Shown piece by piece: positions 18,001 to 24,000 of a stretch of 29,469 nt of DNA (within the stretch, counting starts at the first letter, position 1; every line of letters begins with the position of its first letter). A program made the position numbers. Origin of the DNA: Pseudobdellovibrionaceae bacterium (GTDB taxonomy: Bacteria > Bdellovibrionota > Bdellovibrionia > Bdellovibrionales > Bdellovibrionaceae); NCBI GenBank assembly GCA_039810425.1, contig JBDHWW010000037.1, positions 1 to 29,469 of the forward strand. The letters are read 5' to 3'.

Positions 18001-21000
18001 TGATCAGCGGTATCGCTATTTTCTTGTACGGGATGAGCATGGCGAGCCACTCCCTCGAAAAGCTGATGGCCAACAAGATCACAGGCCTGATGCACAAATT
18101 ATCTGAAAGCAAGTTCCTCTCCATCGTGGTCGGCATTTCTTTGACCACTCTTTTGCAAAGTTCCGGTGCGGTCACGTCCATGCTTGTCGGGTTGGGCTCA
18201 GCGCGCGTAATCACCTTGCGGCAAGTGATGGGCGTGATCATTGGAACCGCGATCGGCTCGACGCTGACAGTTCAATTGATCTCTTTGGATTTGGGGCAGT
18301 ACGCATTGCCGCTTTTCACTATTGCTTTTGCGGTATACTTCCGTGCGAAAAAGCCCGTGTTTAAAAATATCGCCATGGTTTTTATGGGCTTTGGCATGCT
18401 CTTCTTAGGATTAAAACTCATCGGCACTAGCGCGCACCATTTTGCTGAAATGGAAATGATGAAGGACGTTTTCAAGTCGCTGCGGGATAATCCAATGTAC
18501 TCACTGATGATCTCGATGGTCTTTTGTATGTTCGTCCAAAGCAGTGCCGTGACCATCGGTATTGCGATGAGCCTTGCAAGCGTTGGTGTGATCTCAATCT
18601 ACGATGCGATGCTGTGGGTTTACGGCGCAAACATCGGAACGACATCGGTTGCCTTGATTGCGGCGGCCGGCAGCAACCATATCGGCAAGCAAGTGGCTTG
18701 GGCGCATTTTTTCTATAAACTTTTGAGCGCGGTTCTTTTCTATCCGTTCACGAATATCTTTATTGAGTTCCTTGAAACCTTCAACACAACGCCTTCCCGC
18801 ATGACGGCGAACGGCCATTTGGCCTTTAACGTGATTTCCGCAATCGCCTTCTTTCCATTCATCAATAAGGCCGCGAGTTTTATCGAGAAGATGTTCCCGC
18901 CAAACCCTGAAGATGCCTTCGGCACTGAGTTTGTAAATCTCAACAACTATCAGAGCTCCGCCCTGGCGGTATCTTACGCAAACCGTGAGATCATGCGGAC
19001 CGCCGACATCGTGCGCAGCATGATTGAGGACTCCATCCGCCTATTTGAAACCGCGGATCCGGTGCTCATTCAGTCAATCAAAGAGCGGGATAACAAGGTG
19101 GACTTCCTTTACCGCGAAACAAAAATGTTCCTTCTCGACCATGCCAACAAAAGCAACACGGTCGTACACCAGAACATCATGAGCATGATTATGTTCATTA
19201 GCGATCTTGAGCGCGCCGCCGATGCCATTGACATCAACATCATTGCCTTGGCGATTAAGAAAAATGCGCTTCACTTGGAATTTTCTGACGAAGGCATGTC
19301 TGAGATCAAAAGCCTGCACAGTCAAGTTGTGATGGTGGCGCAAATGGCGATCAACTCATACCAGACTCGCGAACTCTGCCCTGAAGTGATTCAGCTAAAG
19401 CGCGAACTCGCGAAGCATGAGATTTCACTTCGTGAAAATCATATCGGCCGCCTGAACCGCGGCATGCGTGACTCCATCAACACGAGCTCCATTCACTTGG
19501 ATCTTTTGAGCGAGTACCGCCGTATCGCAAGCTTGCTTTGCAACCACGCTTATTCGACCCAGAAATGATAGGAGCGCTTCCCATGCTACGCAGTATCAGC
19601 CTGCTGTTTTTTTCAAATATTTTTATGACATTTGCGTGGTATGTCCACTTAAAGAACTTTAAATCTGGTGCGATATGGATTGCCATTCTTGTCAGCTGGG
19701 GGATTGCTTTTTTCGAGTACTGCCTGCAAGTTCCCGCCAATAGAATTGGCTCCGACTATTTTTCTCTTCCCCAACTGAAGGTCATCCAGGAAGTGACGAC
19801 GATGGTCGTCTTTGCCGGCTTTACAGTCATGTATATGAAACAACCCATCAAATTAGACTTTCTCTGGGCGAGTCTCTGCATGATCGGCGCGGTTTACTTC
19901 ATGTTCCGCGGGGCCTAATTGACGGGACGAACTTTTTGCGTCGCCTTGAGGACCGCCTCAAATTCACGCTGAAATTTCCCCATCACATCTTGAGCGACCT
20001 TTTCCGGGCTTAATTTTAAATCTTCCAGACTGCAAGTTTCAACCGGAGTGCCCTTGTTGGTGCAATTGATTGCCAAATGAATCATCGTCGAAACTGGCGA
20101 CTTCGTGGCAATGCTGATATTGAGCTTCTTCTCGCCCCAGAAAATATCATCACCCTCGCGCTCTAGTTGAGCCTTCCCAAGAGCGACGTGCGCTTCGGCT
20201 TGCAAATAGTCTCGAATAATTGAAGCAAAAAGTCTTTGCAGCGCCACCCCCGAAAACAGATCGCGGTCAAAGACCTCAATGATAAAGTGCAACATCTCGG
20301 CGCCTGCAATCGGCGACTTTGCGAGCAGGTCTTCCCCATCCACCATGTGCTCGAATGAAATATCACAAGGACCGGCCCAACTGACTATGGAGTTTCCAAG
20401 GACGCCGTAGGTGAGATACGCGTACAAGGATTTCAGCTGAGTGCCATCATAAGTGATTTTTTCTTTGATAAAAAGTCTCTGCATGAACTCTCCTATGTTA
20501 GATATAAATTTTTAGCTTCAACACCCGCCACCGCAAAAGCGCGTTTCGAGCGCAGGCAAGACTCACACTCGCCACACCATTTCTCTTTCGCCAAATAACA
20601 AGGCCACAGAAGGTGCCATGGCATATTCAACGCCACCCCCTTCTTAACGATATCCGGTTTCTGCAACTTTACAGTGAAACACTCAACCTGCACATGATTC
20701 GCCGTCGAATACGAGAGCGACCGGGTGAGGTCTTTCATGAAAGCTTCGGAATTATCAGGGAAGGTCGTAGCTTCTTCAGCGTTAAAGCCAGGAATCACAA
20801 TCTGTGCGCCGAGAGCCTCGGCAAACGCCGCCCCGATATTAAGGAAAATACCATTGCGATTTGGTACCCAAACGGATTTCGCCGTTTGTAGCGACTGCGC
20901 CTGGCTTTGAATATCCACATTTTTACCCGTGGGAACTGTTTCTGAATCCATCAAAAGCGATGACGTATTGAAGTCCTTAAACCACGGCAAAGACAAAACT

Positions 21001-24000
21001 TTATGCGGGATATTCAGGTGCGCTGCAAGCTTTGCCGAGGACTCGACCTCCTTCTTGGAGGCTTTCTGGCCGTAGTCAAACGTCAGCGCCAACACCACGT
21101 CTTCTTTTTGCGCGGCCACAAAAAGATTTACAGAGGAATCCAGCCCCGATGACAACAATACGACAGCTTTTCTTTTCATGATAATAAAACCTTGTTAGTT
21201 ACTCGGACGCAAATCGCGGACTAAAATCTGAATGCTCTTTTGTCCCGCGAAATAATTCCACTGCAGCTCGCCCAAAACATCGAGGTAAGCCACGTCGCTC
21301 TCGAGAACCTGAAGCTGACGAGGCGATGGAGAGAATAGCAAAGCTTCCTGACTAGAAGGTCCCCCATCACCGTCGAGCAGTTTTAAACGCCAGTGACCAC
21401 CTTTGAGACTTTTCTTAGAATGCACCATCACCCGCTGAAAATGAATCAATGGCGTTGTAAAACCGGTACCGAATGGACCGACGAAATCATACCACTTCAT
21501 GAGCGGGGTTCCAACATCCGCGAGTTTCGCCTCAACATCATAGAAGACTTCAAGCGCTTTTGGTTTTTCATGAAGATCCTGGAAATACTTTTCCAAGCGG
21601 TCCATCACTCCTTCAAGCTTGTCCGCATGCAGTTCGAAACCCGACGCCGCGGAGTGCCCGCCAAAGCGACTCAGCAAATCACCTGCCGAAGCCAGGGCCT
21701 CCACCAAACAAGCTTCTTGCCCTTGTGGCAAGCGCGCACTGCCGACGATCACATTGTCATCACCCCACGCGCCCACGAAGGCCGGCTGGTTAAAGACCTG
21801 AGAAAGCTTGGTCGCAATAAGCCCCACGACCCCGCGATGGAAATTGCGAGACGCCACAAAGACAAAATTTTCGCGGTTCCAATCCTTGAGAAGCTCCATC
21901 GCTTCAGCTTCCGCATCGCTTTGCAGCTGCACGCGCGTGGAATTGTTTTTCAAAACCTGACGAACCATTTCATTGGCTTTGCCGTCGTCATCAACAAGGA
22001 ATAAATCAATCGGTAAAATACCGGACTCCATGCGGCTAAGAGCATTTAATTTCGGCGCAAAACGAATCGCGACGTCCTGGCTCGTCAGCGCGCGGTTATC
22101 AAGGCCGAGTTCAATCAAAAGCGCGCGCAGACCCGGCCGCTTTGTCTCGGCCAGCTTCAAAAGACCGTGCTTCACGAGCACGCGATTGTCCTCCACGAGA
22201 GGCACCATGTCCGTTAAGGTGGCAATCGTGAAAAAATCTAAAACATCTTTCAAATCAAAATTATTTTTCGGAAGGCCCGGATGGTCCACAAAGTAACGCT
22301 TCAAAGCCCGCAACAGATAAAACGCCACCCCCGCTCCGCAGAGATAGCCTAAGCCCGAAACATCGGCTCCATGGTTGGGGTTCACAACGACATAGGCCGG
22401 CGGCAAAACAGGTCCCGGCAAGTGGTGATCCGTCAGAATCACATCCACTCCGATTTTCCGGGCCGTTTCAACCGCAGGAATCGCGGTAATTCCCACGTCC
22501 ACGGTCACGATCAACGTCACACCTTGCTTATGCAGCTCTTCAACCACATCGGCATGAAAACCATACCCTTGCGACAAGCGCTTGGGCTGATAATGAATGA
22601 CGTCGGCAAAACCCAAAGCCAGCATGCCGGTTTTTAGCAACGCCAGCCCCGAAGTGCCATCCAAGTCAAAATCGGCATAGATACAAATTTTTTCTTTATT
22701 GAGGGCTGCGCGACCCAAGCGCTCCACGGCCCTAGCCATGCCATTTAAAAGCATCGGTTCTTTTAGCTCTGTTAACTTAGGAAATAAAAGCTTGTCGACC
22801 TGCTCAGAAGCCGCAAACCCCCGGGAGGCGAGAATTTTGCCGATCAGAGGAGGAAAGGGTCCCTCTGCCGGTTTAATCTCTTGATCTCGCGATCTCCAAA
22901 GAGGACTCATTCCTGCTCCCGTGTTTCAGTTAAAGGCCGCCATCATCCCGGCGGTACCCCGAAAGATGGAATATTATAAAACAAAAAAGGCGACTTTTCA
23001 GCCGCCTTCTTCGAAGCTTACGCCGCTTTAGCGCGCGCTAACTTCAATTTTTCCATGATCAACACAAAAGGTGCCGCCACGTAAATCGAAGAGTAGGTAC
23101 CGAAGAAGATACCAATACAGATCGCAAAGGCGATATCTGACACCGTTCCATCAGCAAACAAATACAAACAAAGTGCGGATACGAATGTCGTCCCAGAAGT
23201 AATGATAGTGCGGCCGAACATATCGTTGATCGCTCTATTCACGACAAAGTGAATGCCTTTGTCGCGGTAGTGCCCCTCTGTTTCACGGATACGGTCAAAC
23301 ACCACGATGGTGTCATTCAACGAAAAACCAATCAATGACAGCAAGGCCGCCAAAACCGGTACGTTCACTTCTTTACCCACCAAAACGAAGATCGCTAAAG
23401 TGATGATCACGTCATGCACCAAGCACACCACCGCACCTGGGGCGAATTTGTAATCAAAGCGAAGACCAACGTACACAAGGATCACGATCAAGCAGTAGAA
23501 TACCGCCAGAAACCCATTGCGCTTCAACTCCGCTCCCACCTGGGGACCCACCGTATCCACGCGGCGGATATCTGGTTCGTTTGCCGTGAGGTCTTTGCTG
23601 ATGGCATCTTTCAAACGTGCAATCGATGCATTCAAGAGCTCGTTCGTTTCTTTATCTGTTTTGCCGTGTTCGCCTTGGAAACGGATAATGTACTCATTCT
23701 GGTCACCGAAGCTTTGAACACCGACTTCGCCGAGGTTCAATTTTTCAGTCGCCTTACGGACCTGATCAATATGAGTTTCTTTAGCGAACTTCACCTGCAT
23801 CTCGGTACCGCCCTTGAAGTCAATACCCCAAGTAACACCGTGAATCGCAAGATAGATCAGAGAAACAATCACCAACAACAATGAAATACCGCCAAAAAGG
23901 CCGACCTTACCTACGAAGTCGACACGGCCAGAAGAGTCCTGTGGATTCGTTTTATTTACGTTTTTTTCCATATTCATCACCTATACCGACAATTTCTTAA

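Follow-up and report, generated by a model that had tools for sequence, protein, structure and literature searches.

The DUF366 protein encoded in the window (the whole 29,469-nt stretch of Pseudobdellovibrionaceae DNA that was analyzed) is probably an unrecognized extra component in the making of preQ0, from which the tRNA base queuosine derives. We favor, with moderate confidence, the reading that it is a dedicated QueC partner in the conversion of 7-carboxy-7-deazaguanine (CDG) to preQ0 and that the pair acts as a two-protein preQ0 synthase. The synthesis of preQ0 is usually presented as complete with four enzymes (FolE, QueD, QueE and QueC); if the reading is correct, the widely distributed DUF366 would add a fifth component, which is paired with a QueC of altered motifs. 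The observations in its favor are gene linkage, a separate QueC clade, natural fusions, the fold and the ligase motif of DUF366, and an otherwise complete pathway. The QueC subtype, the phyletic split, the other contexts (including phage rows and fusions) and the ligase motif in DUF366 are new here. Literature searches for DUF366, COG2029, MJ0805, PF04017 or the combination of preQ0, QueC and biotin protein ligase (BPL) found no relevant paper, nor was any paper found on the DUF366-QueC link; the neighborhood tables of PMC13329287 might list PF04017.

Locus and host pathway

The position of the DUF366 gene 8 nt downstream of queC, reported in the initial annotation, was confirmed (Table 1). 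The GGAG Shine-Dalgarno of DUF366 overlaps the queC stop codon (...ACATAGGAGAGTTCATG, sequence reading), and DUF366 is putatively co-translated with the altered QueC subtype both here and in many other lineages. The preceding recJ probably opens a transcription unit recJ-queC-DUF366, and this gene order was seen again in Bdellovibrio-type loci. Farther upstream, the same strand carries the cluster queA-tgt-yajC-secD-secF; the terminator-like hairpin after secF overlaps the promoter-like site before recJ. An RNA-library contig matches positions 20251-20479 exactly and ends short of the queC junction, the RNA evidence being small-share contig runs only.

The host genome carries FolE, QueD, QueE and QueF, plus tgt and queA, and its queuosine pathway is otherwise complete. 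The possibility that DUF366 substitutes for an absent pathway enzyme was rejected because FolE, QueD, QueE and QueF are all present.

Table 1 Features of the DUF366 locus and of the upstream queuosine genes in the window
Feature	Position	Strand	Basis or remark
DUF366 gene, 189 aa	19915..20484	-	BPL/LplA-like fold
Spacer queC-DUF366, 8 nt	20485..20492	-	Direct sequence reading
queC, DUF366-linked subtype, 228 aa	20493..21179	-	Profile matches and motif reading
recJ	21195..22910	-	15 nt upstream of queC
Terminator-like hairpin, 14 pairs, after secF	23013-22982 within 22973..23013	-	Consensus scan only
Promoter-like site, 10/12 matches, before recJ	23001-22973	-	Consensus scan only
tgt (tRNA-guanine34 transglycosylase)	26099..27223	-	TIGR00430, 532.5 bits
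queA	27211..28230	-	TIGR00113, 289.2 bits vs cut-off 267.45

The DUF366-linked QueC and its distribution

The window QueC scores above the cut-offs of both PF06508 (182.4 bits) and TIGR00364 (173.2 bits vs 150.3), and the QueC equivalog model now in use gives its name to the DUF366-linked subtype as well. It retains the PP-loop SSGLDS, VPNRN, K174 and the zinc Cys motif C194/C202/C205/C208. The signature of canonical QueC includes YxQxHxxE and YPDC (PMC13329287); the window protein reads YGQKASKKE, without the His, and EEATTFPDNS where the canonical protein has D..YPDCR. The pattern YxQxH..E was present in none of 62 linked QueCs vs 15 of 21 canonical ones, and [YF]xDC in 0/62 vs 21/21, while VPxRN (60/62) and the zinc motif (62/62) persist in the linked proteins. 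The DUF366-linked QueCs form a separate clade with altered motifs, which keeps the ATP PP-loop, VPxRN, an aromatic residue and the zinc site and has lost the His of YxQxHxxE together with the Cys-Arg of YPDCR. The loss of these conserved active-site residues suggests that the two proteins share the work of the QueC step itself.

In the phylum sample, DUF366 occurs in 80 of 151 genomes, and in 74 of these 80 the gene directly upstream, in the same orientation, is queC; where DUF366 is absent, the genomes have a canonical QueC that stands alone. Of the 75 genomes in which DUF366 adjoins QueC, 73 show no second QueC among the matches listed, 5 matches lying outside the listing. QueF is encoded in 67 of the 80 DUF366 genomes. 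One family (f6) has DUF366 in 9/9 genomes and a QueC match in 7/9, with QueF found in 0/9. In other phyla, DUF366 stands within queD-queC-DUF366-queE-folE rows; the linkage with QueC spans at least five bacterial phyla, plus phages. The only recurring neighbors of DUF366 are queC, queD, queE, folE and queF; among the loci surveyed, neither a tailoring gene nor an acceptor protein turns up repeatedly next to it, and no transporter does so outside the Bdellovibrio group. In Heliobacterium, DUF366 adjoins queE-folE, and the sole QueC is canonical (GYPDCR, YEQRH, 243 bits) and encoded elsewhere; DUF366 therefore does not invariably accompany the altered QueC. Taken over adjacency, the rows in other phyla and those in phages, the association with QueC and 7-deazaguanine metabolism claimed at the outset proved very strong.

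Two natural QueC-DUF366 fusions were found, which makes such fusions rare. One (P0254) comprises QueC at residues 17-230 and DUF366 at 257-435; the other, a 475-aa ORF (G122), comprises QueC at 17-237 and DUF366 at 276-471. The predicted fold of the 475-aa fusion (two-domain alignment) has domains with pLDDT 90, a pTM of 0.60 and a low-confidence linker. Querying with the DUF366 portion of P0254 returned only 4 long proteins, and a search for longer, fused forms related to the window DUF366 found none. Other fusion partners of DUF366 are Clp_N and SPOR.

Phage DUF366 stands in preQ0/preQ1 gene rows, and the rows with QueC-DUF366 also contain queF. Of the five distinct phage QueCs that are linked directly to DUF366, four retain Cys-Arg and His (YRDCR/FRDCR, YGQKH/YGSSH); since most linked phage QueCs keep these residues, DUF366 does not merely replace lost ones. 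Seven of 17 phage DUF366 loci lack a QueC within 6 kb. With a view to a possible replacement of QueC by DUF366 in phages, five contigs without an adjacent QueC were inspected: two encode QueC elsewhere and three are fragments that are 22-41% complete. The 240-aa proteins encoded upstream of DUF366 in phages do not resemble QueC. At one phage locus (L196), DUF366 is followed by a GATase-QueC fusion, and at some others it lies beside DNA polymerase or glycosyltransferases.

Fold and ligase-type motif of DUF366

The window protein matches Pfam DUF366 (PF04017) with 211.5 bits vs a cut-off of 29.9, residues 1-186 covering profile positions 1-184 of 184, and PDB 2DDZ matches it at E 8e-30. Structure comparison bore out the biotin/lipoate protein ligase-like fold of the initial annotation, namely the catalytic-domain fold common to the BPL/LplA/LipB ligase superfamily. 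The fold had been put forward as new but is not so as a structure, since 2DDZ, released in 2007, already belongs to the family. The conserved residues are Y12, G38, D49, D52, H66, E70, Q83-R84, R109, G111, D113, K120, H136 and N140; K120 is invariant in 64 sequences, the BPL-equivalent Asp and Asn are nearly invariant, and there are many further conserved polar residues.

Profile-profile alignment (hhalign) of DUF366 with BPL, which spans DUF366 residues 109-177 only, gave a probability of 82% and E 1e-5, placing D113 on D124 (the Asp of KWPND), K120 on K131 (the invariant Lys) and N140 on N155 (the Asn of GxGxN). The conserved Lys of BPL has a catalytic role and holds the acyl-adenylate. Because D113, K120 and N140 fall on BPL motif residues, a ligase-type carboxylate/adenylate site in DUF366 is plausible from sequence. 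Within that alignment, the DUF366 N-terminal half has no aligned counterpart of the GRGRxGR (nucleotide/biotin) loop of BPL; PF03099 does not match DUF366, the Pfam scan at E<=0.01 listing DUF366 alone, and the DUF366 profile reaches a BPL in the PDB (that of Aquifex) at E 0.094 only. With no aligned loop and no PF03099 match, ATP binding by DUF366 is a prediction. ESM Atlas gave no usable match for DUF366. PADLOC models and PHROGs contained no family for it, and a defense-system reading was accordingly dropped.

Proposed role, alternatives and related systems

A key question is whether DUF366 serves a new step or branch, as the initial annotation proposed for an ATP-dependent ligase acting on CDG, or the known route. 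QueF requires preQ0. The QueC-DUF366 pair must deliver ordinary preQ0, because QueC is mostly single, QueF accompanies DUF366 in 67/80 genomes, the host has queF, tgt and queA, and the phage rows include queF. We therefore read DUF366 as acting at the CDG-to-preQ0 step; of the original proposal, the ligase-type site stands as plausible, and the new branch does not. In the proposed two-protein synthase, the biotin-ligase-like pocket of DUF366 (D113, K120 and N140, with acidic and His residues) would bind the CDG carboxylate and probably also take ATP. DUF366, presumably in physical contact with QueC, would perform or assist the first activation (CDG -> CDG-AMP -> amide ADG), and the PP-loop QueC would complete the nitrile. 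A strict division of labor, in which DUF366 is a biotin-ligase-fold CDG-ammonia ligase (CDG + ATP + NH3 -> ADG) and the FPDNS-type PP-loop QueC a dedicated amide-to-nitrile dehydratase, is a tentative extension. If true, Bdellovibrionota, several Bacillota and other phyla would use a two-enzyme preQ0 synthase, as would archaea and phages, and ADG might be supplied in this way for DNA modification.

Several observations speak against the partnership: Heliobacterium, the phage QueCs with Cys-Arg, the 7/17 phage loci, family f6 without QueF, the rarity of fusions, the unaligned GRGRxGR counterpart and the absent PF03099 match, and the fact that canonical QueC requires no partner (PMC13329287, where an E. 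coli queC complementation assay was used). Two of them, f6 and Heliobacterium, would suit a separate ATP-dependent ligase that joins the carboxylate of CDG (or a close 7-deazapurine) to another acceptor and opens a product or branch beside preQ0. The fold with its ligase Lys, Asp and Asn would also suit it, as would the QueC-family enzymes known to stop at amides, RoyL, Cap9 and QatC (10.64898/2026.04.15.718813; PMC13329287). We nevertheless regard such a ligase as improbable, given that the conserved neighbors are pathway genes with no acceptor or tailoring gene, that most DUF366 genomes combine one QueC with a preQ0-requiring QueF, and that residue loss in the linked QueC is hard to explain if QueC worked alone.

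HisZ, a HisRS paralogue that serves short-form HisG, is a model for another, rather unlikely role: a non-catalytic subunit or chaperone that only binds CDG, stabilizes or activates QueC, or bridges QueE and QueC. Against this stand the invariant Lys, the near-invariant Asp and Asn and the many conserved polar residues, which exceed the needs of a scaffold. Salvage, storage or self-protection (e.g., binding of preQ0, preQ1 or queuine) in place of synthesis would suit a small ligand-binding fold adjoining pathway genes, and the predatory Bdellovibrio group could salvage bases; however, the strict queC-then-DUF366 order, the QueC fusions and the co-variation with QueC subtype fit a synthetic step better, and the lack of a recurring transporter outside that group also makes this very improbable. 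The idea that the operon arose by chance, with an unrelated carboxylate as the substrate that DUF366 ligates, deserves hardly any weight: the fold alone names no substrate, and some phage copies keep other company, but the linkage extends across at least five bacterial phyla and phages, with fusions.

If the partnership with QueC holds, it would affect annotation, reveal how the half-reactions divide among the residues of QueC and give a role to the structural-genomics protein 2DDZ. This is the DUF366 family member PH0223 of Pyrococcus horikoshii, whose function was given as unknown on deposition. As DUF366 accompanies preQ0 genes in phages, the finding is also relevant to phage 7-deazaguanine DNA modification.

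Among known systems, HisZ/short-form HisG and AsnA are analogies with distant fold kinship only. BPL (BirA, group I), LplA and LipB (PF03099) share 9-15% identity with DUF366, which differs from them in its lack of a PF03099 match and its unaligned GRGRxGR region. DUF366 has no acceptor protein domain or neighbor, its genomic partner being QueC and not an acyl-carrier or biotin/lipoyl domain protein. The only paper found to name PH0223 is a two-hybrid study, in one of its tables (PMC1414084). Gat-QueC, the RoyL-type amide synthetases, Cap9 and QatC indicate that the scaffold of QueC is modular, with amide formation separable from nitrile formation; unlike the linked QueC, none is described with a BPL-fold partner. 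Canonical QueC (E. coli, B. subtilis; PDB 3BL5, 2PG3) has the same pathway position as the linked subtype and shares with it PF06508/TIGR00364, the PP-loop, VPxRN, K174 and the zinc Cys motif. It carries YxQxHxxE and YPDC(R) and works alone (PMC13329287), whereas the linked subtype carries YGQ[KR][AS].. and FPDNS, constitutes a clade of its own and has DUF366 as the next gene.

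The queC-DUF366 pair and its linkage

Both genes lie where the initial annotation had placed them. The window QueC scored 173.2 bits against the TIGR00364 QueC equivalog (cut-off 150.3), and its DUF366 neighbour received no NCBIfam name. The 8-nt spacer between the genes contains a GGAG overlapping the stop codon of queC; upstream, on the same strand, recJ ends 15 nt before queC and is itself preceded by queA-tgt-yajC-secD-secF. With a hairpin resembling a terminator and a site resembling a promoter in the secF/recJ interval, this layout makes recJ-queC-DUF366 the likely transcription unit, one that closely follows the classical queA-tgt operon.

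Coordinates of the features discussed (window or fetched locus)
Feature	Location	Position	Strand	Remarks
DUF366	window	19915-20484	minus	189 aa; PF04017 matched end to end, E 9.1e-63
queC	window	20493-21179	minus	228 aa; above cut-offs of PF06508 and TIGR00364
DMT_6/DUF486 membrane protein (cluster 14)	window	19538-19918	plus	converges on DUF366, gene ends overlapping by 4 nt; several Bdellovibrio loci have a member of this family downstream of DUF366
Prophage-like 7-deazaguanine DNA-modification row	L006 (contig C15 of the same genome, G000, 45000-64999)	6219-11876		terminase large subunit, DUF5681, FolE, QueE (Cx14CxxC type), QueD, canonical QueC, DpdA-like phrog_887 (queuine tRNA-ribosyltransferase), ParB-like/methyltransferase-like protein; DUF1064 nearby
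Inserted 732-aa ORF	L176 (G111, contig C17)	3295-5493	opposite	no Pfam family; between queC and DUF366
Phosphoribosyltransferase PF00156 in phage preQ0/DUF366 rows	L192	4482-4946
	L193	4834-5310
	L202	4167-4613
	L194	6702-7178
Conserved phage protein directly upstream of DUF366	L195	5237-5980		240-248 aa (also L200, L201)
	L199	4730-5971		414 aa, N-terminal extension
	L200	5247-5978
	L201	5258-5977

In a sample of 151 genomes of the phylum, DUF366 was present in 80 and QueC in 141. A QueC match lay within 300 nt of DUF366 in 75 of the 80; queC was directly upstream on the same strand in 74 of these and on the opposite strand in one (G140). The remaining five comprised G111, with one gene inserted, and four cases of contig ends or incomplete genomes (G052, G020, G085 and G060). 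The Bdellovibrio-type row is queA-tgt-yajC-secDF-recJ-queC-DUF366. G111 is the sole case in the order in which the pair is split.

The linkage extends across prokaryotes: among 80 fetched loci, 79 had a DUF366 ORF, and QueC was directly upstream in 73. Two of the other six begin at a contig end and four are genuine exceptions. Two of these four are MAGs, one from Armatimonadia and one delta-proteobacterial, both with variant QueCs encoded on separate contigs; the other two are Heliobacterium species, with a DUF366-queE-folE row and a canonical QueC elsewhere. Desulfofundulus, Pelotomaculum, Desulfovirgula and other Bacillota share the row queD-queC-DUF366-queE-folE-surE. Natural QueC-DUF366 fusions were also found, one of 438 aa (P0254) and one as a 475-aa ORF downstream of queD (genome G122). 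Rare fusions of DUF366 to Clp_N (347 aa, two proteins) and to SPOR (415 aa) occur among homologues P0206, P0272 and P0271.

In the viral set of 17 DUF366 loci, QueC was directly upstream in six (three of them nearly identical) and one small ORF away in another, and a GATase-QueC fusion was directly downstream in one. Typical rows are queE-PRTase-queC-x-DUF366 and queD-PRTase-queE-queC-DUF366-folE...queF. The conserved protein preceding DUF366 in four phage loci carries an LDNGAFE motif, lies downstream of an AAA ATPase and has no clear Pfam family; it does not resemble QueC, and phrog_19058 (function unknown) is matched by one member.

A distinct subtype of QueC

According to PMC13329287, canonical QueC's catalytic signature includes YxQxHxxE and YPDC; the mutants Y35A, R99A, Y131A and Y189A are dead and Y131F retains part of its activity, and the mutant set described there does not extend to the His, Cys and Arg. 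The DUF366-linked copies retain the PP-loop, VPxRN, K174 and the zinc cysteines, and differ from canonical ones as follows.

Motif counts in dereplicated linked and canonical QueCs
Motif	Linked	Canonical
YPDCR	0/62	21/21
any [YF]xDC	0/62	21/21
YxQxH..E	0/62	15/21
[FY]xDN[STKA]	61/62	0/21
E where canonical has D	62/62	0/21

In a quick ML tree of 96 QueCs, a branch of length 0.77 (SH-aLRT 99) sets apart 64 rows. Of these, 62 are the linked cellular QueCs, which come from five phyla; the other two are a phage copy and the copy at a contig end in G071. The linked QueCs form a subtype of their own. In this phylum, DUF366-adjacent copies scored 119-194 Pfam bits (median 174.5), and 60 of the 63 QueC-bearing genomes without DUF366 had a copy scoring 200 bits or more; the linked and canonical states are mutually exclusive there. 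Second QueC copies in genomes without DUF366 form a third type, with GYRDC and VVGRN, in which Cys and His are kept. Members of this QueC-like type (loci L183-L187 and L191) show HSGGMDSS, VVGRN and GYRDC[SN]R and form their own clade (SH-aLRT 99).

Fold and ligase-like motif of DUF366

The AlphaFold2 model of DUF366, built with 64 diverse homologues (pLDDT 97.5, pTM 0.92), matched 2DDZ, the family member PH0223 of Pyrococcus horikoshii, at TM 0.93 and biotin/lipoate ligases at E 2e-7 to 2e-5 (TM about 0.45-0.61) in Foldseek; no class II aaRS-like structure, HisZ included, was among the matches listed. The ligase-like fold initially proposed is thus borne out, although it is not new as a structure, since 2DDZ was released in 2007. 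Profile-profile alignment with 27 biotin protein ligases (BPLs) from genomes of the same phylum gave a probability of 82% (E 1e-5, 69 columns), in which D113, K120 and N140 align with the KWPND Asp, the invariant Lys and the GxGxN Asn of BPLs. K120 is invariant across the family. The N-terminal half of DUF366 did not align to BPL, so that the BPL GRGRxGR, which lies there, has no aligned counterpart. This profile-profile alignment is new here.

Product and role of the pair

DUF366 might open a new step or branch by ligating 7-carboxy-7-deazaguanine (CDG) or a close 7-deazapurine, as the initial annotation read it, or serve the known conversion of CDG to preQ0. The host offers no gap for DUF366 to fill, since QueD candidates (PTPS; contigs C6 and C22), QueF (C34), FolE (C64 and C50), QueE (C7; best model TIGR04349, 258.7 bits, below the cut-off of 300), and Tgt and QueA, both encoded in the window, are all present. 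A second QueC, canonical (YPDCREEF) and scoring above the window copy, is encoded on contig C15 within a prophage-like row with terminase, FolE, QueE, QueD, a DpdA-like transglycosylase (phrog_887) and a ParB-like protein; the window QueC is the host's own copy.

Of the 75 genomes in which a QueC adjoins DUF366, 73 had no second QueC among the matches listed, which were all but five. QueF was found in 67 of the 80 DUF366 genomes versus 65 of the 71 others, and is also encoded in phage rows bearing QueC-DUF366. The product of the pair must therefore be ordinary preQ0, which speaks against a new branch and favours a model in which QueC and DUF366 would share the work at the CDG-to-preQ0 step. 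In family f6 (nine genomes of 1.3-1.7 Mb: G001, G011, G020, G028, G036, G044, G052, G060 and G068), DUF366 was present in 9/9, a QueC match in 7/9 and QueF in 0/9, so preQ0 may be used differently there, or a reductase may go unrecognised. The half-reaction that DUF366 would contribute we infer only from its ligase-like motif and, by analogy, from the chemistry of BPL- and AsnA-type enzymes.

The canonical QueC of Heliobacterium, together with the Cys-Arg and His kept in four of the five distinct QueCs that phages pair with DUF366, indicates that the two proteins became partners earlier, or in more lineages, than the residues were lost. On one reading, the pairing arose first and later eased selection on QueC.

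As initially stated, the family seems to lack a literature: no paper was found for DUF366, PF04017, COG2029 or MJ0805, nor for preQ0, QueC and 'biotin protein ligase' combined, and in the literature found PH0223 is named only within a two-hybrid table. The main text of PMC13329287 contains no word beginning 'DUF'. The proposed two-protein variant of the QueC step is new; comparative genomics gives good support to this putative variant of a known enzymatic step, otherwise carried out by canonical QueC as a single protein.
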